Source: an uncultured Pirellulales bacterium (GTDB lineage Bacteria > Planctomycetota > Phycisphaerae > Sedimentisphaerales > SM23-30). From it: a DNA stretch of 64,000 nucleotides. Below are positions 9,845 through 60,676 of this stretch, piece by piece; within the stretch, counting starts at the first letter, position 1; every line of letters begins with the position of its first letter. The stretch is from NCBI GenBank assembly GCA_964580995.1, contig CAZOMV010000002.1, positions 38,904-102,903 on the forward strand, written 5' to 3'. The position numbers and the translations under genes were made by a program. Below the pieces are notes generated by a model that did no database searches, had not been told where the DNA came from, and saw only the letters and a program-made list of their open reading frames with translations.

Positions 9845-10871
9845 TGCGTTTTGTTCCCGCGGGAGTACCGGCTGGCCGTAATACGCAAAGATATATATGG
9901 GGACATTCAGCCACCATGCTGGAATCCACACCTTTTGGTCCATCATCGTATCCTCCTGTAAAAAAAATATTTACCACAGATTCGATCAGCCAAACCATCC
10001 GGTTTGGCTTCGCTATAGTTATTATAATATCATAATTTATTTTGCCGGCAGAATCCAATAGCTCCTCTATATAGGGGCCGATGTCCACGAATGCGCAAGG
10101 ATTTTTCCATTTTTTTGGGAGAAAATGACGTAAACCCTTGTCAAAGCTCAACAAAATTTTTTTACGTTGCGCAATTTTGGCCATTCACCGTGGCCGTTAT
10201 TGCGCAATTTTTCCTTATCCATTTGATTTCAACTGGTTATGGCATTATTGTATGTGGGTTGGGCAGGGAAAATGGTAAGCTGGATGGATTGGGTAAGATT
10301 GGTAAATGTTGAATAAAGTGTAGTAAAAGATGAATGAAGTGATATAGAAGTATAGAAAAACCGCATGAAGCCTGAGTAAAACATATATAAAAGCGAATGT
10401 TTTTTACGCGTGGCATCTTGGCTGCGGCAGAAAGGTTTGCGGGACAAAGTTGCCTATATTTCCTATTTTTTCTCTATTGAAATAACTGGAGAGGGAAGAA
10501 GAAATTTTATTTTCAACCCGACCAGATGGGGGAGGAAAAGGCGATTCGGCTGGGGTTCGGGGCAATCATTCTGATCGGGTAATCTGCTGGGGGCTGGGAG
10601 GTTGGGGAGGGGAGGCAGGAGGGGTGCTGACGGGGGGGCGGGGTCAGGTCCGAGGGCGGGAAGAATGGCTGGAAAATATCAAATTTATTATTGGTTTGGA
10701 GTTGAGGCAGGGGTAGAATGGGGGCAGATTGGGCAGCATGAAGTGACAGGCAAGGTTTTTAAATATGGGAATAAGCGAATAAAATTGAATCACGGATTAC
10801 ACTGGTTGCATGGATTAAAGAGAATGCATAATCAAGGAAATGAAAATGTTTAGCCGGATTGTAGGAATAAA

Positions 10872-13715
10872 ATGCGTAAAGAAAATGATGTTAATGTATT
10901 TGATAGTCTGATTGCTGAAGCACCTAAAATTGCAGTTCTAAGTGATAATCCCATATCACTGGGAGAGATGAATAAAGATACCTTTCATTTAAGTTATCAT
11001 CTGGGGCCGATCTACGATATTATACGTCATGAGGACACGCAAATGCCTCTGACAATCGGCGTCTATGGTAAATGGGGATGCGGGAAAACCACGGCCATGA
11101 GATGGCTTGATGACGCTTTAAGACTGTGGAACAAGTCCGCAGAATCAAAAAATAAAATAACAACCAGAAACAGCTGGTTTTACCCCTGGAAATACCATGA
11201 TAAAGAAGAAGTCTGGAAAGGACTGATTAGTGAAGTAATATTAAATGCCATTGACTTTAAAAATGCCGAGTCTAAAACAGTGCTTAAAGCGGTTAAATTG
11301 CTTTCGTCATTTATTGGGAAATCAGCATTTGATATAGTTTCCGCTTGTGAATTTGAGGTGCCTGGGTTTAAGATAAATGGTGATATTGCAAAACAGATTA
11401 AAGATAATTTCAATACGGTCAACCATCCGGAAAAATCCTACCTTAACGAATATGAACGAGAACTGGACCAATGGATAAAAGATATACTATCGAATAACAA
11501 AAGAATGGTTATTTTTATCGATGACCTTGATCGATGTATGCCCGATATTGCCCTGCAGGTACTAGAGGCGATAAAGCTTTATCTTAAAATCGAAAAAATA
11601 ATATTTGTTATAGGTATGGATAGAAATATCGTTGAAAAGGCGGTAAAAGCTTATTGCGAAGAAAAACATATTGATGTAGACGATGATTATGGAAGAAAGT
11701 ATCTGGAAAAAATGTTTCAGGTTGAATTGCAGATGTCGCCATCCCAACGTGAGATGGACCTGTATCTTGATGCGCAACTGGAGACGGTACACTTTAAAAA
11801 ATGTATTGACCGAAAGAGTAAAAAAGGAAAAAGCAGTTATGAATTGTTTAAACATTTGATAGCCAAATATGGCGGGCGAAATCCCAGGGAAGTAAAAAGG
11901 CTTATTAACAATTCATTAATAAGAGGGGCTGGTGCAGATAAAATAAGAATCAATTCAAAGAAATTAACTTTTGAACAGGGAGTTCAGTTATATTTTATTC
12001 AAAAGATACTTATCGAAAGGTACAATCGATTTGAAGTGGTTGGTGATGGAGACATTGGTGATGGATTTTTTACAAAGTGGTCAACAATCGTGCGTGAAAA
12101 TAATCAAAAAAACGGATTTTTTCGTATTCTTAGTAAAACAACCATAGAGCGATATATGCCTGATAAAAGAGAAAAGGAAACGGATACTGTTTCAAGAAAT
12201 AGTGAAAAGTTGGCAGATTATCTTGTAGATACTTATTCGCAGTATTACAGCACTATTCTTCAAAGTGAAGAATATTCTGATTTACTAATCCTGCTTTCCG
12301 ATGAGGATCTTGGGGATCTCATGCAGATTGAATATTCGGCGGAAATTGCGGTATTTGCCAAGGAGCAACAGCTTGAGGTACCAGTTGCTGATGATGACAA
12401 AATTATTAATGCTGTGATTGCAGAAAAACTTGGGAAAGATCCACAGGATTTGACGGAGAAGGACTATGAAGTTATTAGCGATCTTGATCTTGCCGGCAAA
12501 AAGATATCTGACATTAAGCGACTTAAAAAGTGTGTCAATTTAAAAATATTAGACATGGAGGGTGCCGGCATCAGCGATATTTCACCACTTAGTCAGCTCC
12601 TACAGTTGGAAAGATTAAATCTAAACAATAATCAAATTAAAGACATTTCATCGCTCAGGGATATGGTGAATTTAACGGTATTGTCATTGTACGATAATAA
12701 TATTGATGACATAAGTCCGTTGCGTAATTTGACACAATTGATGAGTTTATATCTAAGCAAAAATCAGGTCCAAGATATTTCTCCGCTTGAAAATTTAGTG
12801 AATCTTACGGAATTATCATTATATGGGAACAAGATAGATGATATTACATCACTCAAAGGGTTGACAAACCTGGTGGACTTATATTTATTTGACAATCAGA
12901 TCAAAAACATTTCCGCGCTCGAAGCAATAACACATCTGAAAAGTTTACTTTTAAATCAGAATCATATTAGCGATGTATTTTCACTGGAAAAATTAGTAAC
13001 CCTTAAAACTCTACATTTGGAAAATAATCAGATTAAAAATATTTCGCCCCTTGCAAAACTAGTAAATTTGACTGAATTAAATTTAAGTGATAATCAGATT
13101 AGTAATATCTCGTCTCTCAAAGATATGAAAAATCTTGGAGGATTACACTTAAGCAAAAATCCTGTCCAAAACATACATCTGTTATGTGAATTAACGAACC
13201 TAAACGCATTAGATCTTTCGGAAACTATGGTAGAAGACCTTGCACCTCTGGCGATGTTAAGTAATTTGAGCCGGCTTTGTATTCGCCGCACACAAATCAA
13301 TAATCTTGAACCGATAAAAATACTTGTAAATCTGAAAAGTGTATTTCTGGAGGGTTGCACGAATATTACTGATGAACAGATTCGCGATCTGCAAAAGACT
13401 TTGCCGAATTGTGAAATTCAAGCATTTATAAAAGAAGTCACTCTTCTAAATAGAAAATACAGATTATTTTTTAACCCAAAGATAAAAGGAAAATCCAAAA
13501 TTATGCAGTTTGGCGCAAATGGGGTGATACTTGAAGGCAAAAACAAGAATGAGTCGTCTTGGCAAATTCGTAATGGTTTTCTTGAATTGCTAAATTCTGA
13601 CGGACAGGTGCATAGCCGTTTTTACTTTATTCCCAAAGATAACCGATTCAATCATACCAACGATGCGGACACACATTCCATCCGAGGGCAATATATTGTG
13701 CTGGAGGAAAATTAA
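10872..13715 (+). CDS. KAP-family P-loop NTPase fused to about 14 leucine-rich repeats and an unassigned C-terminal module of about 100 aa
   Basis: Walker A is GVYGKWGCGKTT, followed by the KAP-typical FYPWKY. Walker B is MVIFIDDLDRC, followed by LEAIKLYL, FVIGMDRNIV and YLEKMFQ. From aa 537 (nt 12480) there are about 14 tandem 22-aa repeats of the form L.L..N.I.DIS.L..L.NL. No TM insert is visible. The gene is visibly AT-rich relative to its flanks. Confidence 0.85.
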   Translation: MRKENDVNVFDSLIAEAPKIAVLSDNPISLGEMNKDTFHLSYHLGPIYDIIRHEDTQMPLTIGVYGKWGCGKTTAMRWLDDALRLWNKSAESKNKITTRNSWFYPWKYHDKEEVWKGLISEVILNAIDFKNAESKTVLKAVKLLSSFIGKSAFDIVSACEFEVPGFKINGDIAKQIKDNFNTVNHPEKSYLNEYERELDQWIKDILSNNKRMVIFIDDLDRCMPDIALQVLEAIKLYLKIEKIIFVIGMDRNIVEKAVKAYCEEKHIDVDDDYGRKYLEKMFQVELQMSPSQREMDLYLDAQLETVHFKKCIDRKSKKGKSSYELFKHLIAKYGGRNPREVKRLINNSLIRGAGADKIRINSKKLTFEQGVQLYFIQKILIERYNRFEVVGDGDIGDGFFTKWSTIVRENNQKNGFFRILSKTTIERYMPDKREKETDTVSRNSEKLADYLVDTYSQYYSTILQSEEYSDLLILLSDEDLGDLMQIEYSAEIAVFAKEQQLEVPVADDDKIINAVIAEKLGKDPQDLTEKDYEVISDLDLAGKKISDIKRLKKCVNLKILDMEGAGISDISPLSQLLQLERLNLNNNQIKDISSLRDMVNLTVLSLYDNNIDDISPLRNLTQLMSLYLSKNQVQDISPLENLVNLTELSLYGNKIDDITSLKGLTNLVDLYLFDNQIKNISALEAITHLKSLLLNQNHISDVFSLEKLVTLKTLHLENNQIKNISPLAKLVNLTELNLSDNQISNISSLKDMKNLGGLHLSKNPVQNIHLLCELTNLNALDLSETMVEDLAPLAMLSNLSRLCIRRTQINNLEPIKILVNLKSVFLEGCTNITDEQIRDLQKTLPNCEIQAFIKEVTLLNRKYRLFFNPKIKGKSKIMQFGANGVILEGKNKNESSWQIRNGFLELLNSDGQVHSRFYFIPKDNRFNHTNDADTHSIRGQYIVLEEN

Positions 13716-13750
13716 GATCGATTTTGTTTTGATTATCACAGGGAATGAAT

Positions 13751-13794
13751 GGACATACACGGACATACACGGACTGGCACGGACGGTCACGGAC
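13751..13794 (+). repeat. 10-bp-phased direct repeat (GGACNNNCAC units; CACGGAC x4, GGAC x5)
   Basis: The sequence is ggacatacac ggacatacac ggactggcac ggacggtcac ggac, with an exact 10-nt period. It lies between the KAP-LRR stop and the four-helix-bundle gene. Confidence 0.85.
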
Positions 13795-13988
13795 AAAGAA
13801 GATGGGATGAAAGAAAAGAAGAGAAGAGGAAAGAAATTTCAGAAGAAAGAAAAGAAAATAGATTCCTGCCCCTGATCGGGTCAAGGGCAGGCTTTTGCAG
13901 GAATCCCGATATATTGGGAACGGACGAGAGGCGGGGCAGGTGAGTTTGGCAGTTCAGAAAGAGATACTGACTGAAAGGAGGATATACA

Positions 13989-14634
13989 ATGGCAGAACAT
14001 GAGAAAATCCTGGTCAAGCATGGAGGGTATCGGAAACTAAAGAGTTTCCAGGTGGCGCAGCTTGTTTATGATGTTACGGTGCGTTTTTGCCAGCGGTATA
14101 TCGATCCGTACAGCAGGACGAAAGACCAGATGGTCCAGGCAGCGCGGAGCGGGATGGCGAATATCGCGGAAGGATCGCAGGCGTCGGACATCCAAAAAGA
14201 CAGAATTGAAGCTGACCAATGTGGCCCGGGCGAGTCTGGAGGAGTTGCGGCTGGACTATGAGGATTATTTACGACAGCGGGGGCTGCCGGTTTTCGAGGC
14301 GGAGGATCCGATATTAAAACGTTTTAAGGCCCGAAGGTGCAAGACGATTGCAGAGGTGAGCGATTGGATTCAACAAGAACGAAAGCAAATTCCAGACGGA
14401 CAGGGATCCACACCGCCGAGCAAAGATCCCGATGGTTTTGCGGTGGACAATGGCAATCCGGGGAAGCCCTTTTCTTCGGCGGAACTGGCAGCCAATGCGG
14501 CTTTGTCGCTGCTGAATCTGGTGTGCTATCTGCTGGGCCGGCAGATAGCGACCCAGGCGGAGGCCTTTGAACAGGAAGGAGGATTTACGGAACGGCTGCA
14601 CCGGGTCCGGAAACAAAGACCGGGGAAAACATGA
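13989..14634 (+). pseudogene. Four-helix-bundle protein (23S rRNA intervening-sequence protein / Avd-like family) with suffix domain, interrupted by a frameshift near 14183-14198
   Basis: ORF 13989..14261 carries the family N-terminal part (FQVAQLVYDVTVRF...QMVQAARSGMANIAEGSQAS). The family continuation (KKTELKLTNVARASLEELRLDYEDYLRQRGL...) is in the +1 frame, ORF 14062..14634. The junction lies at gcgtcggacatccaaaaagaca, which contains an A5 run. A strong SD (AAAGGAGGA) precedes 13989. Confidence 0.7.
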
Positions 14635-15351: not shown

Positions 15352-18108
15352 TCAGGGTGCACTGATATTGGTTACGATGCTGCTGGTTGTGAACGTGTTT
15401 GTCAGCGTGCCGGGTGTATAGGTCCCACCCTGATACAACCCGTCGGTTTTGGTCCCGGTCGAGCTCCCGCCGTTATACAGCTTGTAGCTCGTACCCGATA
15501 GGAAGTTCGGCGAAGAAAACACACACGATCTATAGGCTTTTGCCGGTGCAAAGGTCAGAACATCCGCGCCGGCGGCGGTTCTAATATGGATCAGAGTTCC
15601 GGCCGTCTTCCATTGGCTGTAGGTAATCTTCACGGAACGCTGCGTTGACGTGGAGCTGAGGGCCTGGGCCATCTGGGCACTGCCCACCCCCACCAGGAAT
15701 CCGCCGCTGATATTGCAGGTGCCGTCAAAGTCCACGGCATTGTTATCATTCGCGGTCGGACCGTTGATGATGACGGTCCCGCCCGTCATCACGATACTGC
15801 CATTGGCATCGATGCCGTCCCCGATGGCATTCACCACGATGTAGCCGCCGTTCACGTACAGGAAATAGTCGCTGTTGCCGCTGGGGGGAAAAGGCGGATG
15901 CCACGGATCGACGCCGCCGGAGCCATCGCCCCCGGCGATGTTGATCCCGTCATCGCTCGATGTAATGTGGAAAGTCCCGCCGTTGATGGTGATAATCGCA
16001 CCCTCGAGGCCTTCGTAGGAGCTGGTAATGGCCATCGTTCCGCCGTTTATCTCGACCGTGCTGTCGGAATGAACGGCGTCATCCCCGGTGGCAATCTCGA
16101 ATGTCCCGTTGTTGATCGTGATGGCCTCGTTGGTATGGATCGCATCGTCGGCACAGTCCATGTCGAACGTGCCGCCGTCAATTACCACGCTGACAAGACC
16201 TTTGATGCCCTTGGCCGAAAAGTCATCGGCAATGCTCGCCGTGTGGCCGCCACCGGAGAGGATGTTGAATTCGCCATCGTCGATGTCGATGGTGGTTTCG
16301 GCCGTGATGGCGTCCTCATCAGAAGTAACGTCAATATTACCGCCGGTGATCGTGATGGTTGAGCTTTCGATTCCCTCGTAGCTGTCCGTAATGGTGATCG
16401 TGCCGCCATCGATTCCAATGGCAATGTCCGCATGGATTCCATCGTCGCTGGAGGCGATGGTGGCCGCGCCGCCGCTGATTGTCACGGTATCGCCGGAGTG
16501 GAGTCCGTCATCGGCGCAATCGAGGTTGAGCGTGCCGCCGTTAATCACCACGCTGACAGGCCCTTTGATACCCTTGGCTGAAAAGTCATCGGCAATGCTG
16601 GCGGTGTGGCCGCCGCCGGAGACAATCGTGATGTCGCCCGCCAGCACGGTGACATTCGTCTCCGCCGCGATGCCGTCTCCACCGGAGGTGATGTCCAGCG
16701 ACCCATTCTCTATCGTGATGTATCCAAAATTGGGGTCTTCAGCGTTGGTGGATTTCAGCGCATCCCCTACGGCCGTCAGGGTGATGTCCCCATCCTGGAT
16801 CAGCAGATAGTCCTTGCCGCAAATGCCGTCGTCAACCGAGATGACGTCGAGGGTGCCGCCGTTGATAATCAGATCGTCCTTACTTACGATGGCGTCGCTG
16901 TAGTTCCCGTGAACGGTCAGTGTGCCGGTACCGGATATCGACATCGAGTCCTTACTGAACAAACAGCCGCTGGGTTCGTCCTGGTTCGGATCTTCGAACA
17001 CATATTCATCCGCGTCGAACAGGTAGTTCTGGGTCTGATCGGCCAGCACGAACGACGTGAACGAGGCGTCGATCACATGGATTGCGGCGCTCGTGGAGTT
17101 AGTGATAGAAACACCGGCCAGGATAATCTCCACCGTACCGGCTGAGGGAGAATTCACGGCGAGCTGCCCATCGTTGAGCGTGCCGCTGACGTTGTAGGTG
17201 CCGGCGGCCGTGATGGTGGCTGTCGTTCCATCCACCGTGACGCCGGTGCCGTTAACGGTGATCGAATCCCCGTTCAAGAGGATCTGCGTGGGGCCGGAAG
17301 CCTCCGAACGGCAGCCGCACAACGGTTCGGCGGGAATGCCATCGCCGCTGTAACAGCTCGCGAAAACGGCGTAATCGAGCATATCCACGTCGTAATCCTC
17401 ATCGGCATCCGCCAGGACAATACCGTTTTCATCGGGGGTCAAGCCGCACGACGGGTTGGCCGAATTGTCTGTGACGAGGTAACAGCTCACGAAATTGACG
17501 AAGTCGTTCAGATCCACATCGCCGTCCATGTCGTAATCGCTCAAGGCATAGCCCACGATCCGGCCGGGACTGGCGATATCGCCGCCCGCGGAGGTCCGCG
17601 AACCGAAGATGTCCCTGACCGCGGCCAGGCTCCAGTCCGTCTGGGCAATCGTCTGGCCGTAATCGGAGGCTGGAATATTGCAACTGGCATACTGGGTGCG
17701 CGGCGTGCCGGGGTAGTTCTCGTCGCCGTAGCTCAACTGGTCCACCAGGACATCGCTTGAATCGTAGAGATTGATCTGGCCATTCCGGTCTATGTTGGTA
17801 GTGGACTCGCCGATGATGGTGACGCCGGTTAGTTCCCAGGCGGCGGCGAAGTCCGCGGCCACCGCTTCGGTCAAAATGACTGATTCGCCAGGATCGACCA
17901 CGCCGAAAGCGCTCAAGTCCACTGTACCCGGGGTTTGGCTGCCATCGTCGAAACTCCACCCGGACATATCCACCGGGACTGTGCCGACGTTCGTAAATTC
18001 GATAAATTCTCCGTCCGTCCCGCTGTACATCCACTCCGTAATGGCCATCTGGCCGGAAGCGACCTGGGCGAGAATCACGATCAATCCGAATAGTAGCGTG
18101 CGCTGCAT
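15352..18108 (-). CDS. Secreted multidomain protein: lamin-tail-like domain, two dockerin/EF-hand-like segments, and a parallel beta-helix carbohydrate-binding-like region with an internal duplication
   Basis: The start is placed at ATG 18108 with AAGGAGG upstream and the signal peptide MQRTLLFGLIVILAQVASG. ITEWMYSGTDGEFIEFTN...MSGWSFDD is LTD-like. DYDMDGDVDLNDFVNFVSCY and DADEDYDVDMLDYAVFASCY are dockerin-like. Gly/Asp/Thr/Ile-rich coils (DDGIH.., GGT..I) resemble the Cthe_2159-type beta-helix family. Confidence 0.8.
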   Translation of the reverse strand: MQRTLLFGLIVILAQVASGQMAITEWMYSGTDGEFIEFTNVGTVPVDMSGWSFDDGSQTPGTVDLSAFGVVDPGESVILTEAVAADFAAAWELTGVTIIGESTTNIDRNGQINLYDSSDVLVDQLSYGDENYPGTPRTQYASCNIPASDYGQTIAQTDWSLAAVRDIFGSRTSAGGDIASPGRIVGYALSDYDMDGDVDLNDFVNFVSCYLVTDNSANPSCGLTPDENGIVLADADEDYDVDMLDYAVFASCYSGDGIPAEPLCGCRSEASGPTQILLNGDSITVNGTGVTVDGTTATITAAGTYNVSGTLNDGQLAVNSPSAGTVEIILAGVSITNSTSAAIHVIDASFTSFVLADQTQNYLFDADEYVFEDPNQDEPSGCLFSKDSMSISGTGTLTVHGNYSDAIVSKDDLIINGGTLDVISVDDGICGKDYLLIQDGDITLTAVGDALKSTNAEDPNFGYITIENGSLDITSGGDGIAAETNVTVLAGDITIVSGGGHTASIADDFSAKGIKGPVSVVINGGTLNLDCADDGLHSGDTVTISGGAATIASSDDGIHADIAIGIDGGTITITDSYEGIESSTITITGGNIDVTSDEDAITAETTIDIDDGEFNILSGGGHTASIADDFSAKGIKGLVSVVIDGGTFDMDCADDAIHTNEAITINNGTFEIATGDDAVHSDSTVEINGGTMAITSSYEGLEGAIITINGGTFHITSSDDGINIAGGDGSGGVDPWHPPFPPSGNSDYFLYVNGGYIVVNAIGDGIDANGSIVMTGGTVIINGPTANDNNAVDFDGTCNISGGFLVGVGSAQMAQALSSTSTQRSVKITYSQWKTAGTLIHIRTAAGADVLTFAPAKAYRSCVFSSPNFLSGTSYKLYNGGSSTGTKTDGLYQGGTYTPGTLTNTFTTSSIVTNISAP

Positions 18109-18480
18109 ACGAAACCTCCTTGGGCACAAAAACTCATCCACGAATAATTTATTGTCAAATATACCTGTCAGGCACATTCCTAACAAAATCCAAACGGCAT
18201 AAAACTCTTTCCTATATAGTAAGTGCTTGCTTTTGGCTAAAAGTAGCAACGGGATTGGAAAAAATTGCATCGAGGCCGCATAATTTTAAATAGGATAGAT
18301 TGGGCCACTCCAAATTCGTTGGTGGAAACGATGTTTAGTATTGATATAAGTGATTTAGATTTATTGCTTTATGCCGCCGGCAGGGGGCGGTATTTCACGA
18401 TACCGCCCGTATGTACTCCTGCCGCTGCTTATGCCGGAGGTTTTCATGCGATAAATCCATCTCCTGTAACCATCCAGAAA

Positions 18481-18571
18481 TGACGCCAGCGTCAAAAGCT
18501 CGTTGTCCCCTTGTTATCGGGGCGCCAGAGCAGTTTTTGGAAGTCGATATTGACTTTTGGCGTTTCCGTCA
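18481..18571 (+). repeat. 91-bp dispersed intergenic element, copy 1 (the strand given is the hairpin-plus-T-run orientation)
   Basis: The sequence is tgacgccagcgtcaaaagctcgttgtccccttgttatcggggcgccagagcagtttttggaagtcgatattgacttttggcgtttccgtca. It aligns base-for-base with four other copies in the window. Confidence 0.9.
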
Positions 18572-18698
18572 GAAATAAGCAATTTTTTGGAGTTGAACCT
18601 TTCTTGCAAATTGCATGACCGGCGGTTATTGTAGGGCCTGACCAGGAGAGTGGCAGGCGGAGTATGGCCTGCCGGACTGGTTCGGAAAGAGAAGATGG

Positions 18699-18718
18699 AT
18701 TCCCGCCTGCGCGGGAAT
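18699..18718. repeat. REP-like GC hairpin ATTCCCGC-ctgc-GCGGGAAT
   Basis: It has a perfect 8-bp stem and lies 31 nt upstream of the dapL ATG. Its translation artefacts (DSRLRGND / IPAQAGIH) are typical of a widespread palindromic repeat type. Confidence 0.5.
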
Positions 18719-18748
18719 GACAGAGAATATGGAGAAGATGCGGCAGGT

Positions 18749-33674: not shown

Positions 33675-33900
33675 CGGCTTCCTCATATTCAGATTTCTAA
33701 CTCGGTCCCTGACCCCAGCAGGACAGGGAATTCAACAGACTATTCAATTAATCCAACATACTATCACAGCCAGAGAGGTTTTTCCAGAAAAGAATAAACT
33801 CCCGACCTTACGGCTCGACCGATTATAAATGCCGATCTGACATGGAATTATATTTGCCCCCTGCCTTTCCCGCCGGTTCCCGATTTCCACTTTATACAAC

Positions 33901-33935
33901 ACGGCCCGACTGGATAGCCAGCCGGGCCGTTTTTA
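33901..33935. terminator. Strong GC hairpin with T5 tract just 3' of the 33952 gene (T-run on the plus strand)
   Basis: The stem is ACGGCCCGaCTGG-atag-CCAGcCGGGCCGT, followed by TTTTT. A homologous hairpin (AACCGGCCGG...CCGGCCGGTT, then TT) lies at about 34906-34936 behind the paralog. Its orientation is not the canonical one for the minus-strand genes. Confidence 0.4.
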
Positions 33936-33951
33936 CCTGATAAAAGCTGGT

Positions 33952-34749
33952 TTATTCACAAATTGTATTACTCTGGTCATTGCAGTCCAGCCAACTCTGG
34001 GCGAAGATAGCAAAATCTTCCAGATTCACATAGCAGTCCCAATTAAAATCCATCGGAAGCTGGGTCGTACAACTGTCACTGATGGCAAAAGAAACGGCAT
34101 TCCAATCCGTATTAGCCAAATCTGCCGGGCCATGCGCACAGACCATCACATCGATTGTATCGCCGGCTGTCACCTCGCAGGTATCGGAAAACGCCATGGG
34201 GCTTTCGGGTGTTACACCTATTTGTTCCAGCAGGACCGTGCGCTGATTGGGATCCGCGGCAACACTTTTCACGATGTAAGCATCTACCAGGCCTCCCTGG
34301 CTCAGATACATGGAGGCATCTATGGAGACGACACTGGGAGCAGCAAACGAGGCAGGAGCGGTCCAGCGGATCAGGGCAGGGACTTCCACGGCAGGCCCCG
34401 TAGTAGTATAACCGGGTTTCATGCCATGCACTCCGGCTGGCACGCCGACTTCGGGTCCAACCCAAAGATGCGGTGCAGCCCCCTGCCATTCCTTCAACCA
34501 CAATATGTTAGCCCCTACCCTTACCCCACTATCCTCCAACAATCCCTCATAGATAGGAATTCTATTGGGATCGGTGGGATCGCCTACAGCGTATCCATAG
34601 GACCAGATGCCATTGTCATTGATAGAGGCATTCATATCGGTATTTACATTCCAGACATCCGCCGAGGCAAGACTGCATACAGACACATTTACCACGGTGA
34701 TCAGCGTCCCTATAGCCAGGAAACATTTTAAACTTATTTTCGTTTTCAT
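33952..34749 (-). CDS. Secreted protein: one uncharacterised module of about 200 aa plus a dockerin-like Cys-containing tail
   Basis: It has a signal peptide. The module carries the motifs WNVNTDMNASINDNGIWSYGY, IRWTAPA and AGDTIDVMV. The tail is LPMDFNWDCYVNLEDFAIFAQSWLDCND. Confidence 0.7.
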   Translation of the reverse strand: MKTKISLKCFLAIGTLITVVNVSVCSLASADVWNVNTDMNASINDNGIWSYGYAVGDPTDPNRIPIYEGLLEDSGVRVGANILWLKEWQGAAPHLWVGPEVGVPAGVHGMKPGYTTTGPAVEVPALIRWTAPASFAAPSVVSIDASMYLSQGGLVDAYIVKSVAADPNQRTVLLEQIGVTPESPMAFSDTCEVTAGDTIDVMVCAHGPADLANTDWNAVSFAISDSCTTQLPMDFNWDCYVNLEDFAIFAQSWLDCNDQSNTICE

Positions 34750-34956
34750 TTTTATTATTCTCCAAAACTATTTTTGTACCACATTCTAAATTCAAAAGCG
34801 GACGACTATCCGTGAGCCGGATACTTTCCCAGATCAAATCAGGATCTGCTCTTTCCACCAACTTCTTCTCTTTGTTCTTTTCACAACATTTCCATTGTGG
34901 ATCATTCGAACCGGCCGGATACCTAACCCGGCCGGTTTTACCGGATGAAAGTTGGT

Positions 34957-36282
34957 TTATTGACAACCTGGATCACTGATGTCATTGCAGTCCAGCCAGC
35001 TTTGGGCGAAAATGGCAAGATCTTCCAGGTTCACATAGCAATCCTCATTAAAGTCCATGGGAAGGTAAGTCACACAGGTTAGAAAACCTTCGGATATGGT
35101 AATCGAAGTAGCCGTCCAATCGCTCACCGCCGCACCTGCCGGACCAAGCATACAATCAATGGTGTCGCCTGCTACAATCGTGCATTCCGTTTTAGACGCA
35201 AAGGGGGCTGCGATGGATACACCATTTTTTGCATCCAGGATCGTTTGCTGATTGGCATCCCCGGCAATGCTTTTCACTACTTTAACATCTACCAAGCCAC
35301 CGGGTCTGGTTGGTTGAAATGATGCTTCAATTATGATATTAATAGGAGTAACAATGGCGGCAGGGGCGGTCCAGCGGAATATGGCTGGTTCACCGCCTGC
35401 ACCAGGGTGCATACCATGCATGCCACGGGGCACATCAACACCTGCGCTGCCTTTCCAAATGTGTGGTCCCCCGTGAGTGCCTTCTACCCAAATAAATCGT
35501 TCTCCTGCTACCGCACGAACATCATCGATCAAGCCTTCAAAGACAGTAAAATTGGGATCGCCGTATCCATAGGACCAGATGCCATTATCATTGACAGAGG
35601 TATCCATGTCTGTATTCAGATCCCACGGGGTAACACCAGGATCTTTTGGCGCATCGGTGATGGTAATAGCTGTCGTAGTCCAATCATTAGCTGGGCTGCC
35701 TGCCGGGCCGACCATAAAATCAATCGTGTCGCCTGCTGCAACCGTGCAGGGAGTTGAAAACGTAACGCCGTCTGCGGAGGTTATACCTGTTTCACGCAGT
35801 AAAAACGTTTGCTGATTGGGATCCCCTGCCACGCTTTTCACGATAATAACATCTACCACGCCAGAGTTGACGGGCTGAAACCATCCATGAATTGACATAT
35901 TAGTAGGAGTAACGATAGTGGCAGGAGCGGTCCAGCGGATTACGGCTGGGACATCACCTCCAAGGGTTTTCACACCGCCATTCATGCCATGGAATCCAAG
36001 GGGCACTCCAACAAGGGATCCAACGAAAATGTGTGGAACCGCACCATTCACGTCCTTGATCCAGATATTATTTGTTCCTCCGGATGAACCCCCATTATCC
36101 AGTAACCCTTTATAGGCAACTATGTTAGGATCGTTTGGATCAAATTCCGCATATCCATAGGACCAGATGCCATTATCGCCTATGGATGCGTTCATATCCG
36201 TATTCACATCCCAGGTAGTCGCCGAGGCAATACTGCCTAGAGACACACCCAGCATTGCAATCAACACCAGTACCTTTTTCAT
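34957..36282 (-). CDS. Secreted paralog with two tandem copies of the same module plus a dockerin-like tail
   Basis: The start is placed at MKKVLVLIAMLGVSLGSIASA (ATG 36282). The motifs are repeated (WDVNTDMNASIGDNGIWSYGY / WDLNTDMDTSVNDNGIWSYGY; IRWTAPA / FRWTAPA; AGDTIDFMV / AGDTIDCML). The tail is LPMDFNEDCYVNLEDLAIFAQSWLDCND. Confidence 0.7.
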   Translation of the reverse strand: MKKVLVLIAMLGVSLGSIASATTWDVNTDMNASIGDNGIWSYGYAEFDPNDPNIVAYKGLLDNGGSSGGTNNIWIKDVNGAVPHIFVGSLVGVPLGFHGMNGGVKTLGGDVPAVIRWTAPATIVTPTNMSIHGWFQPVNSGVVDVIIVKSVAGDPNQQTFLLRETGITSADGVTFSTPCTVAAGDTIDFMVGPAGSPANDWTTTAITITDAPKDPGVTPWDLNTDMDTSVNDNGIWSYGYGDPNFTVFEGLIDDVRAVAGERFIWVEGTHGGPHIWKGSAGVDVPRGMHGMHPGAGGEPAIFRWTAPAAIVTPINIIIEASFQPTRPGGLVDVKVVKSIAGDANQQTILDAKNGVSIAAPFASKTECTIVAGDTIDCMLGPAGAAVSDWTATSITISEGFLTCVTYLPMDFNEDCYVNLEDLAIFAQSWLDCNDISDPGCQ

Positions 36283-36630
36283 CTTACTTTCCTCCGATTG
36301 GCAAAACGGTTTTTCTCGCTTTGTCAATTTGTAAAAAAGACCATACAATAAAACACACGCACTTTCGTGCACATATACAGAAAACTACGTACGGATGAGA
36401 TTATGATTTGCACACGTAACAAGAAGAGAACACAGACAAAATCCAAGTGAAGCGTTTTCTCATCCTTTGAATTTATACGTTAATCATAACGACATGATAA
36501 CAAGTTGTCAAGCGAAAAGTAACAATAGCATAAGGGATAAATATTTTATAAATAAGAAGTTGCGCTAATTTAACTTCTTATTTCATAACAATTTAACCCA
36601 TGTCGTCGGTGGTTTTCCAAGACTTGATTG

Positions 36631-46127: not shown

Positions 46128-46317
46128 AATTCGCAGGATTTCCAGATAGTTCCGTAATACCTATCCAAACTAGTTTCCACTTCCGGTCCATCCGAAAAAG
46201 GGATAAGACAATTTTATAAAATGCTTTACAGAATAATGGTATGCCCCATCAGGAGCGAAGTCAAGCCAATTGTTGGCCGGATTTGGGATGGCCATCGGGG
46301 TGTAAAGAATCACCTAT

Positions 46318-46408
46318 TGATGGAAACGCCACAAGTCAATATGGACTTCCAAAAACAGCTCTGGCGCCCCGATAACAAGGGGACGACGAGTTTTTGACGC
46401 TGGCGTCC
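46318..46408 (-). repeat. 91-bp dispersed intergenic element, copy 2
   Basis: It aligns with copy 1 in reverse complement. It starts 18 nt after the stop codon of the 46426 gene and lies 190 nt upstream of the efflux operon start codon. Confidence 0.9.
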
Positions 46409-46425
46409 CTATTGGAGACGGCTTG

Positions 46426-47370: not shown

Positions 47371-47620
47371 TTTAATACCTTTCTGTAAAAAATATCTTAC
47401 CTTATGCTGGAAACGACAACATGTTATTTCCCCTTTTTTGCTCTGTCAAACAATATCGGATACCGCCAGACCGTCAGCTCCAGCAAAAGAATGGCCGTAC
47501 CCAAAATATAAATCGGCGCCACCACCTGCGAAAACGAAATCCGCCACCCTCCGTTTTTCCCCCCACCAGTTTTTCCTGCCGCCGCTTATGCCGGAGGCCT
47601 CCATGCGATAAATCCATTTT

Positions 47621-47711
47621 TGACGGAACCGCCAAAAATCGATATTGACAGCCAAAAACAGCTCTGGCTCCCCAATAACAAGGGGTCGAAGAGCTTTTGA
47701 CGCTGGCGTCA
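47621..47711 (-). repeat. 91-bp dispersed intergenic element, copy 3
   Basis: It aligns with the other copies and lies about 250 nt upstream of the 47370 start codon. A 44-bp box shared with copy 1 lies next to it. Confidence 0.9.
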
Positions 47712-47792
47712 TTTTTAACCATTTTTTAACCGTTTCCTCACCCCTTCTTTACAATTCCCGTCTATATTCCTTATAGAGAATGGAATGACAAA

Positions 47793-48044
47793 ATGATTCA
47801 CACGGAGAAAAATATGGTGACAGATACCCACTGGCTGAATAACGAAACGGCGGCTCAACTGTGTACCCTGCACTCCATCATCCACCAGACCGCCGACCAT
47901 ATCGAAGACGGCTGCTTCCACGAGGCCGCCCGCTGCCTGGAAGACTCCCTCGAGCAACTCATCCCCCTGATCCGCAACCTCCGCGACTGCTGTGCCGTAA
48001 CGGAGTATCCCATTCAGCCACCCCACCTGTACTACCTGGTGTAA
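47793..48044 (+). CDS. Hypothetical small protein (83 aa)
   Basis: The call rests on the ORF only. Its helical-looking composition is more protein-like than the overlapping antisense ORF at 47715..48026. No motif was recognised. Confidence 0.3.
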   Translation: MIHTEKNMVTDTHWLNNETAAQLCTLHSIIHQTADHIEDGCFHEAARCLEDSLEQLIPLIRNLRDCCAVTEYPIQPPHLYYLV

Positions 48045-48309: not shown

Positions 48310-49545
48310 ATGTACCTCGAAAGATCGATTACCGCCAAACTGAAAAAGCTTGCCGAATACTTCCCCGCCGTAGTTGTCACCGGTGCCCGTCAGGTTGGCA
48401 AAAGTACCCTCGTAAAGCATGTTTTTGGCCAGCAGGCCGAATATATCCTGTTTGACTCTGTTTTCGCCGCGGAAAACGTCCGCCAGGAACCCGACCTTTT
48501 CCTGCAAAACCACCGCACCCCGCTCATCCTCGATGAAATTCAATATGCCCCCGAACTGGTTTCTTCCCTCAAACGGAAAATCGACCAGAACCGCTCCCCC
48601 GGCCAGTATATCCTGACCGGCTCCCAGCAATGGGCCGTCATGAAGTCCATCTCGGAAAGCCTGGCCGGCCGGGCTGTCTTTCTCGACCTGGAAGGCTTCA
48701 GCCTCCAGGAAATAGCGAAAAATTCCTCCGACTCCTGGCTGATGAAATGGCTGGCCGATCCGCAGGATTTCATCGCCGCCCCCAAAAACCGCCTCACGCT
48801 GGACAAACCGTTTTATGAACTCCTCTGGCGCGGCTCCCTCCCCGAAGCCGCCTTCCTGCCGCTTGATATAGTCCCTGATTTCCAGGCCGGCTATTTCCGC
48901 ACCTATATCGAACGGGATGCCCGGCAATTCGCCGACCTCTCCGACTGGAACCTCTTCGGCCGGTTTGTCAAACTCGCCGCCGCGCTCACCGCCCAGGAAA
49001 TCCACTTCAGCCAACTGGGACGAGAACTGGGCCTGACCCCCCAAACGGCCCGGCGCTGGCTGAATATCCTCAAAGCCACTTTCCAGTGGTTTGAAATCCC
49101 TGCCTTTTCCTCTAATCTCATAAAAAGAGTAAGCAGCAAACCCAAAGGCTATATCGCCGACACGGCTCTGATTTGCAACGCCCAGGCGATTACCACTCCC
49201 AATGTGATCGCTGGCCACCCCCTATACGGCGCCATCTTCGAAACCGCCGTAATCGCCGAAATCCGAAAACAATGCGCCCTGCTTCCCTCGCCCATTGCCA
49301 TGTATCATTGGCGGACCTACAGAGGAGCGGAAGTGGACCTCATCCTGGAAAAAGACGGCAAATATTTTCCCATCGAAATCAAAGCCAACAGCCGGCCCGC
49401 CCGCCGTGATACCAACGGCCTTTGCGCCTTCCGCAATGCCTATCCGAAACTCGACATAGCGCCGGGCTTGATCCTTGCACCCTGCCCGGCGTTCCTGAAA
49501 GTCTCAGACTCCGACTACGCCCTCCCCTGGGACACCTGCCTCTAA
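48310..49545 (+). CDS. AAA-family ATPase with DUF4143-type C-terminal domain
   Basis: Walker A is VVTGARQVGKST and Walker B is LILDEIQ. The layout is typical of AAA_14 plus DUF4143. Confidence 0.85.
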   Translation: MYLERSITAKLKKLAEYFPAVVVTGARQVGKSTLVKHVFGQQAEYILFDSVFAAENVRQEPDLFLQNHRTPLILDEIQYAPELVSSLKRKIDQNRSPGQYILTGSQQWAVMKSISESLAGRAVFLDLEGFSLQEIAKNSSDSWLMKWLADPQDFIAAPKNRLTLDKPFYELLWRGSLPEAAFLPLDIVPDFQAGYFRTYIERDARQFADLSDWNLFGRFVKLAAALTAQEIHFSQLGRELGLTPQTARRWLNILKATFQWFEIPAFSSNLIKRVSSKPKGYIADTALICNAQAITTPNVIAGHPLYGAIFETAVIAEIRKQCALLPSPIAMYHWRTYRGAEVDLILEKDGKYFPIEIKANSRPARRDTNGLCAFRNAYPKLDIAPGLILAPCPAFLKVSDSDYALPWDTCL

Positions 49546-56816: not shown

Positions 56817-56907
56817 AGACGGAACCGCCAAAAGTCGTTATTGACTTCCAAAAGCAGCTCTGGCTCCCCAATACCAAGGGATCGACGAGCTTTTGACGCT
56901 AGCGTCA
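56817..56907 (-). repeat. 91-bp dispersed intergenic element, copy 4
   Basis: It aligns with the other copies. It lies 210 nt upstream of the sigma gene start codon and about 200 nt after the stop codon of the 57109 gene. Confidence 0.9.
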
Positions 56908-60585: not shown

Positions 60586-60676
60586 TGACGGAACCGCCAA
60601 AAGTCGATATGGACATCCAAAAATGGCTCTGGCTCCCCAATAACAAGGGAACGACGAGCTTTTGACGCCGGCGTCA
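60586..60676 (-). repeat. 91-bp dispersed intergenic element, copy 5
   Basis: It aligns with the other copies. It lies 193 nt upstream of the 60392 start codon and 80 nt after the stop codon of the 60757 gene. Confidence 0.9.

Follow-up and report, generated by a model that had tools for sequence, protein, structure and literature searches.

The window analysed here, a stretch of 64,000 nt, contains ordinary genes, among them dapL, prmC, murA, gatA/gatB, aspS, those of an RND efflux system and those of ECF sigma factors. The DapL protein, encoded just to the right of the 18.4-kb copy of the short repeat element described below, shares 96% identity with the one from 'Planctomycetes bacterium ADurb.Bin412', and its next matches are from Sedimentisphaerales MAGs. 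These matches assign the window to an uncultured Phycisphaerae/Sedimentisphaerales planctomycete of a digester or sludge type.

Some further features of the window were recorded alongside the repeats. Between a HEAT-repeat gene and dapL, positions 15352-18270 (minus strand) encode a secreted protein of 972 aa with a Cthe_2159 carbohydrate-binding domain, a lamin-tail domain and 22-aa beta-strand repeats. Because this gene is absent from the corresponding place in the close relative ADurb.Bin412 (L022), it represents a strain-variable insertion. The dapL leader contains a GC-rich hairpin, GGATTCCCGCCTGCGCGGGAATGAC, at 18697-18721, downstream of a promoter-like TTGCAAAT-N14-TTATTGTA, which relatives conserve. 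This hairpin is single in the window, occurs at 199-223 of the related contig L021, and is duplicated together with a unit of approximately 120 nt in ADurb.Bin412 (L022, 730-754 and 854-878). It matched no Rfam family, and it may be a regulatory leader. A low-GC island at approximately 10000-14000 (36-39% GC, compared with about 55% elsewhere) encodes a protein of 947 aa that combines a KAP-family P-loop NTPase domain with leucine-rich repeats, and was probably acquired horizontally. At 33880-36400, units of about 1 kb are repeated two to three times with 61-86% identity (repeat families D2, D4 and D6-D8); the minus-strand ORFs in this region (33952-34749 and 34957-36372) matched no Pfam family and resemble tandem paralogues. 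Finally, an 83-aa ORF with no family match (47793-48044, plus strand) is followed by the gene of an ATPase with the domains AAA_14 and DUF4143 (48310-49545, plus strand), and the record of a contig from JGI sample 3300075153 shows the same gene order with identical intergenic lengths.

The analysis started from two repeated sequences that lie side by side at two places. The first is a 44-bp box, TCCTGCCGCYGCTTATGCCGGAGGNNNNCATGCGATAAATCCAT, of which the window has two copies, at 18417-18460 and 47574-47617, both on the plus strand. The two copies are identical at 40 of 44 bases, and zero occurrences were expected in shuffled window sequence (100 shuffles). The preliminary description had correctly placed the box at two sites on the same strand, and we revise its first coordinate from 18418 to 18417 and its mismatch count from about 6 to 4. 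The second is a short element, delimited at that stage as 91 bp, with five copies in the window: 18481-18571 on the plus strand, and 46318-46408, 47621-47711, 56817-56907 and 60586-60676 on the minus strand. At 18.4 kb, the end of the element that faces the box is TGACGCCAGCGTCA (the GACGCC end), 20 nt away by the 91-bp bounds; at 47.6 kb, it is the opposite end, TGACGGAACCGCC (the CCGTC end), 3 nt away. Different ends therefore face the box, and the observation that the element adjoins it in opposite relative orientations at the two loci is real.

The element is a MITE. It is non-coding and small, within the range of approximately 70-300 bp expected of such elements, and its true size is 89 bp (GACGCC...TTCCGTC) with a 6-bp duplication on each side, rather than 91 bp. 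The terminal inverted repeats, GACGCCAGCGTCAAAAG and GACGGAACCGCCAAAAG, are imperfect (13 of 17 positions match), and the two ends pair in the predicted fold, which is a weak hairpin (z about -1.7). The only internal ORF has about 30 codons, with a start codon in three of the five window copies. A direct duplication of 6 bp flanks every copy in the window; it is perfect in four of them and matches at five of six positions in the fifth. The copies and their duplications are as follows.

18476-18481, plus strand: left target-site duplication AGAAAT of MITE copy 1 (present as a single AGAAAT at the empty site in L028)
18482-18570, plus strand: MITE copy 1, nested in the right arm of unit2 (see below), 21 nt past the box
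18571-18576, plus strand: right target-site duplication AGAAAT of MITE copy 1
46319-46407, minus strand: MITE copy 2, with duplication AATAGG (CCTATT on the plus strand, 46313-46318 and 46408-46413); no box near
47616-47621, plus strand: target-site duplication ATTTTT of MITE copy 3 (AAAAAT in the orientation of the element), overlapping the last 2 nt of the box
47622-47710, minus strand: MITE copy 3, 89 bp, in the orientation opposite to copy 1
47711-47716, plus strand: second target-site duplication ATTTTT of MITE copy 3
56818-56906, minus strand: MITE copy 4, with duplication TAGTTT; no box near
60587-60675, minus strand: MITE copy 5, with duplication AAGGAT/AAGAAT (5/6); no box near

We then collected this family beyond the window. 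A scan with the conserved core of the MITE retrieved 20 contigs of the Planctomycetota MAG UR.bin216 and 28 metagenome contigs, the latter from digester or activated-sludge samples. Together with the window, these sequences gave 58 strong nhmmer matches, and at least 50 dispersed copies have unrelated flanks. Among 57 copies from the same three sources that could be scored for flanking duplications, 35 had one (26 perfect, 9 with five of six positions). The target hexamers are A/T-rich and often start with AAT. Identity among copies is approximately 90%, which, together with the clean 6-bp duplication, indicates that the MITE has been active recently. The copies in the window hinted at a strand bias relative to genes, which disappeared with more copies: where the neighbouring genes are co-directional, 8 copies point the same way and 5 the opposite way, and orientation is thus unbiased. 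No autonomous insertion sequence with MITE-like ends was found in approximately 300 kb of retrieved sequence. Such a parent would end in GACGCCAGCGTC...GGTTCCGTC and would be flanked by 6-bp duplications.

One contig considered as a candidate parent, L052, instead contains a MITE split by unrelated DNA. Its left part lies at 876-947 (model positions 2-72) and its right part at 2389-2412 (model positions 68-91), and the approximately 1.44 kb between them carries a gene for an RRM-type RNA-binding protein and a complete MITE (1594-1682). This arrangement arose either because DNA inserted into a MITE or because MITE copies rearranged with each other. In UR.bin216, MITEs also form clusters of two to three within 0.3-1.7 kb of intergenic DNA (L004, 5457-7170; L018, 187-493; L020, 1335-1853). 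Many metagenome contigs end inside a MITE copy (for example, L036, L039 and L053), and many of the carriers are short; the MITE therefore probably breaks up short-read assemblies of this lineage.

The box was pursued separately. An exact scan for its core in genome_contigs, metagenome_contigs and viral_contigs gave no match, as these collections evidently include neither the source genome nor the box-bearing JGI samples; the candidate of a free-standing repeat was dropped after these empty scans. Homologues were reached by another route. The box shows coding-like signs, namely a bias of differences to third codon positions and in-frame indels in its flanks, and a peptide search from its coding-like plus-strand frame 2 led to an ORF in a JGI metagenome (P0241). 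Four more ORFs spanning the same sequence came from a subsequent profile search of protein representatives. The five corresponding loci are on contigs L028/29, L058, L059/60, L061 and L062/63.

By alignment of these sequences, the box belongs to an intergenic palindromic repeat of 200-300 nt, dispersed in related Sedimentisphaerales genomes, which we term unit2. The preliminary description treated the 44-bp box as a conserved neighbour of the element; the box is part of this longer repeat (18302-18599 in the window) and is not free-standing. The unit2 repeat has ends, GGWTCAACTCC...GGAGTTGAWCC, that are sharp in all aligned copies. It is 289-297 nt long in L059, L062, L061 and L028, and is partially aligned in L058. 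The box, located in an arm, is its best-conserved stretch. The positions of unit2 and its parts are as follows.

18302-18599, plus strand: unit2 copy 1, GGGCCACTCC...GGAGTTGAACC, delimited by alignment with L028, L059, L061 and L062 and by its fold
18356-18384, plus strand: left-arm segment TAGATTTATTGCTTTATGCCGCCGGCAGG, which forms an imperfect inverted repeat with the box and pairs with it
18385-18408, plus strand: central hairpin of unit2, GGGCGGTAT-ttcacg-ATACCGCCC
18417-18460, plus strand: box copy 1, which supplies the 3' strand (right arm) of the unit2 inner stems
47574-47617, plus strand: box copy 2, in a decayed or fragmentary unit2 in which similarity resumes at TAACCAT once the MITE is excised
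Other contigs: unit2 at L028 1169-1457, L059 153-441, L061 250-539 and L062 1346-1642

Each copy of unit2 is predicted to fold as a single long hairpin in which the outer ends pair together. The left-arm strand that pairs with the box reads GGATTTATCGC..TGCC..CGGCA (18356-18384), and the pairing between box and left arm involves consensus columns 56-67 with 242-253 and 73-84 with 224-235. The first window copy is interrupted by the MITE and lacks approximately 85 nt of the centre that is present in other copies; it measures 203 nt after excision of the MITE. At 47.6 kb, the box is 95% identical to that of L028 over 41 nt (91-95% overall), and the remainder of unit2 is decayed. The conservation of the box within this decayed copy could reflect selection on the box. 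The seven copies of unit2 have differing neighbour genes, and the five outside the window lie in unrelated gene contexts, which identifies unit2 as a dispersed repeat. The copy in L059 is flanked by a perfect 8-bp duplication, AAAAATTA (8/8), and the other four complete copies had none. Because only one of the five complete copies shows such a duplication, we infer the mobility of unit2 from its dispersal and palindromic form.

These two families meet at both loci in the window, and the evidence indicates that the two MITEs beside a box are very probably independent insertions, in opposite orientations, into two copies of unit2. This reading, which had been offered in the preliminary description as one of two options, is borne out by the separate duplications of each MITE, by the differing insertion points and by an empty site. 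The related metagenome contigs L028/L029 carry ...CCATCCAGAAATTAGCAACTTTTTGGGAGTTGATCC without interruption (their uninterrupted unit2 sequence reads ...CATCTCCTGTACCATCCAGAAATTAGCAACTTTTTGGGAGTTGATCC). BLAST homology between the window and these contigs stops precisely at the last base of the first AGAAAT (18481). When the MITE and one copy of its duplication were removed, homology crossed the junction with 88% identity over 128 nt. Similarly, excision of the MITE at 47.6 kb restored ...AAATCCATTTTTAACCAT..., which matches the unit2 consensus ...AAATCCATTTCCTGTAACCAT.... Relatives compared upstream of dapL (L021 and L022) and upstream of the esterase gene (L026 and L027) showed neither the box nor the MITE nor local synteny, so that these places allow no presence/absence comparison at the same locus. 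JGI sample 3300075153 contains an identical esterase locus.

The very probable course of events is as follows. The MITE, presumably moved by a transposase encoded elsewhere, inserts into A/T-rich hexamers, duplicates 6 bp and lands either way round. It entered the right arm of a unit2 copy once at each locus: at 18.4 kb in the hexamer AGAAAT, 15 nt past the box, and at 47.6 kb in ATTTTT, which overlaps the last 2 nt of the box. The recipient, unit2, would itself be or have been mobile, rather than a functional RNA or a regulatory module. Both unit2 copies in the window carry a MITE, which is above chance expectation; the A/T-rich target preference of the MITE loosely explains this double hit. 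The earlier suggestion of a preferred target thus survives in a weak form, as a preference for A/T-rich hexamers and nothing beyond that. The association of MITE and box is limited to these two copies: no box was found near approximately 45 other distinct MITE loci, and no MITE in the five unit2 loci of other genomes.

The other option had been an invertible switch, in which a site-specific recombinase would turn the segment around by way of its terminal inverted repeats and the two loci would display its two states. In favour of this idea, a segment with terminal inverted repeats stands in opposite orientations beside the same 44-bp sequence, and both loci where box and element meet are divergent promoter regions. 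However, the insertion points differ (15 nt past the box in one case, overlapping its last 2 nt in the other) and use different hexamers, so that the two loci do not share a fixed position, and each box-adjacent copy sits inside its own 6-bp target duplication. The related sequence L028 has an empty site, and the element is dispersed, with flanks that are unrelated among its copies, which number at least 50. In addition, the 17-bp repeats (13 of 17 positions matching) are separated by approximately 55 bp, a very short distance for inversion by a recombinase. None of the approximately 48 ORFs in the window matched a Pfam family of recombinases, invertases or transposases.

We also examined orientation directly, by comparing all against all the 200-nt flanks of each MITE, oriented by the MITE itself, in assemblies, which represent the consensus, that is, the majority state. 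Eighteen pairs of loci from different assemblies shared flanks, and 6 of these pairs were 80-99% identical. In all 18 pairs, the left flank corresponded to the left flank, and the right to the right wherever the right flank aligned; the sole match between a left and a right flank was the 44-bp box. Both orientations at one locus were thus not found in the 18 orthologous pairs, at the level of the assembly consensus, for which a rare inversion would be below resolution. Given this constant orientation among orthologous loci, together with the separate duplications, the differing distances, the empty site and the unlinked families, the invertible switch is not supported, and we consider it very improbable that the arrangement arose in this way.

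A composite origin, in which box and MITE move as one, or an inversion of 29 kb by recombination between inverted MITEs, would account for the fact that the two MITE copies are mutually inverted, lie 29 kb apart and both adjoin a box. For the inversion, recombination between the copies would leave hybrid flanks; because the duplications match perfectly at both copies (AGAAAT/AGAAAT and ATTTTT/ATTTTT), it is excluded. Moreover, the dapL-prmC-murA-EamA genes between the copies have the same order in the relative L021. The composite arrangement raised as a possibility in the preliminary description is not sustained either, as spacing and orientation to the box differ at the two loci and the two families are separate everywhere else. 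Overall, the probability of an origin of this kind is practically negligible. The possibility that the boxes are the attL and attR sites of a 29-kb island was rejected separately, as the interval contains core genes, dapL, prmC and murA among them, with conserved synteny in a relative.

Independent insertion of the MITEs leaves the nature of the recipient to be considered. It could be that unit2 encodes a structured small RNA or a small protein, or acts as a regulatory leader or operator, with paralogous copies in promoter regions, into which the MITE happened to land twice. An SD-like GGTGGAAACG, conserved in the repeat, precedes an ATG, gene calls in several metagenomes place ORFs of 50-135 aa over the repeat, and 3 of the 4 box differences are at third codon positions in plus-strand frame 2. 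Nevertheless, the reading frame is not kept: in L062, the ORF is split by 8 inserted nucleotides compared with L059, and the L028 copy contains an N-terminal stop codon and, close to its end, a deletion of 1 nt. Only about 4 of 20 substitutions that distinguish L028 from the window affect third codon positions. A version of this idea in which the box is the C-terminal remnant of a small protein was rejected for the broken frame (8-nt and 1-nt indels and a stop), the lack of third-position enrichment, and the absence of a Pfam or NCBIfam match. In public metagenomes, the ORFs of 50-135 aa in unit2 are annotated as 'hypothetical proteins' (P0241-P0244 and P0246). Since the frames differ among copies, these calls are probably spurious.

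A role at the RNA or DNA level would agree with the stable, conserved hairpin of unit2, with the retention of the box at 91-95% in the otherwise decayed 47.6-kb copy, and with the strand of the left-hand gene, which is the opposite one at all four loci where such a gene is present. Against such a role, unit2 has no match in Pfam, NCBIfam or Rfam, its stems show few compensatory changes, and the perfect 8-bp flanking duplication in L059 resembles that of a transposed element. Known RNA families were tried as candidates, and there were no Rfam matches at the gathering score, with chance-level ones only at E values up to 5. With the MITE excised, the nearest promoter-like hexamers lie 48 nt from the box at one locus and 13 nt at the other, and a promoter or operator at a fixed distance was rejected because these distances differ. 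Taking the evidence together, we regard it as unlikely that unit2 is a functional module of any of these types. The more specific proposal that unit2 is a functional promoter-region element (a small RNA or a protein-binding module), with the box as its constrained core and preferentially targeted by the MITE, is quite improbable. If it were true, MITE insertion would be a rewiring of the unit2 module, and not neutral nesting.

The reading of two separate nested insertions removes a false lead, as there is no phase-variable switch at these loci. In addition, two small repeat families that appear to be undescribed are now recorded for the poorly known, uncultured Sedimentisphaerales (Planctomycetota) of anaerobic digesters, and recognition of unit2 would clean up annotations of 'hypothetical proteins' of 50-135 aa.

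Both families can be compared with known systems. The invertons (fimS/FimBE, hin/gix and those of Bacteroides) resemble the present case in having a segment bounded by inverted repeats in promoter regions, with two orientations relative to a conserved neighbour. Here, however, the two orientations are found at two loci and not at one, the copies have target-site duplications, no recombinase is nearby in the window, there is no orientation polymorphism at orthologous loci, and dozens of copies occur in unrelated contexts. Enzymes of the IS200/IS605 type, which move REPs, are not known to leave a target-site duplication. The REP/BIME sequences are CGTC-tagged palindromic repeats mobilised by RAYT transposases (PMC3733652). 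The 89-bp MITE is similar to them in that it starts with GACG, ends with CGTC and has a small palindrome, GACGCCAGCGTC, at its left end; it differs from REPs, which are 20-40 bp long, in its length and in its 6-bp duplication.

The closest likeness is to bacterial MITEs such as Correia/NEMIS of Neisseria, RUP of Streptococcus pneumoniae, ERIC/IRU and the cyanobacterial Nezha, the general features of which are defined in PMC3184786 and PMC3733652. The 89-bp element shares with these families the short non-coding size, terminal inverted repeats, a duplication of fixed length, many similar copies, an intergenic site, insertion in either orientation and a hairpin fold. It has no sequence relationship to any of the named families, and its terminal repeats are imperfect (13/17) as well as short and its 6-bp duplication A/T-rich. 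Nested or clustered MITE insertions have been described in general terms among bacterial small repeats (PMC3184786). The MITE inside an arm of unit2, with an uninterrupted homologue as the empty site, is of the same type, and differs in that the recipient is a putatively mobile repeat (flanking duplication at one of five copies). Both repeat families appear to be undescribed, yet of a familiar kind.
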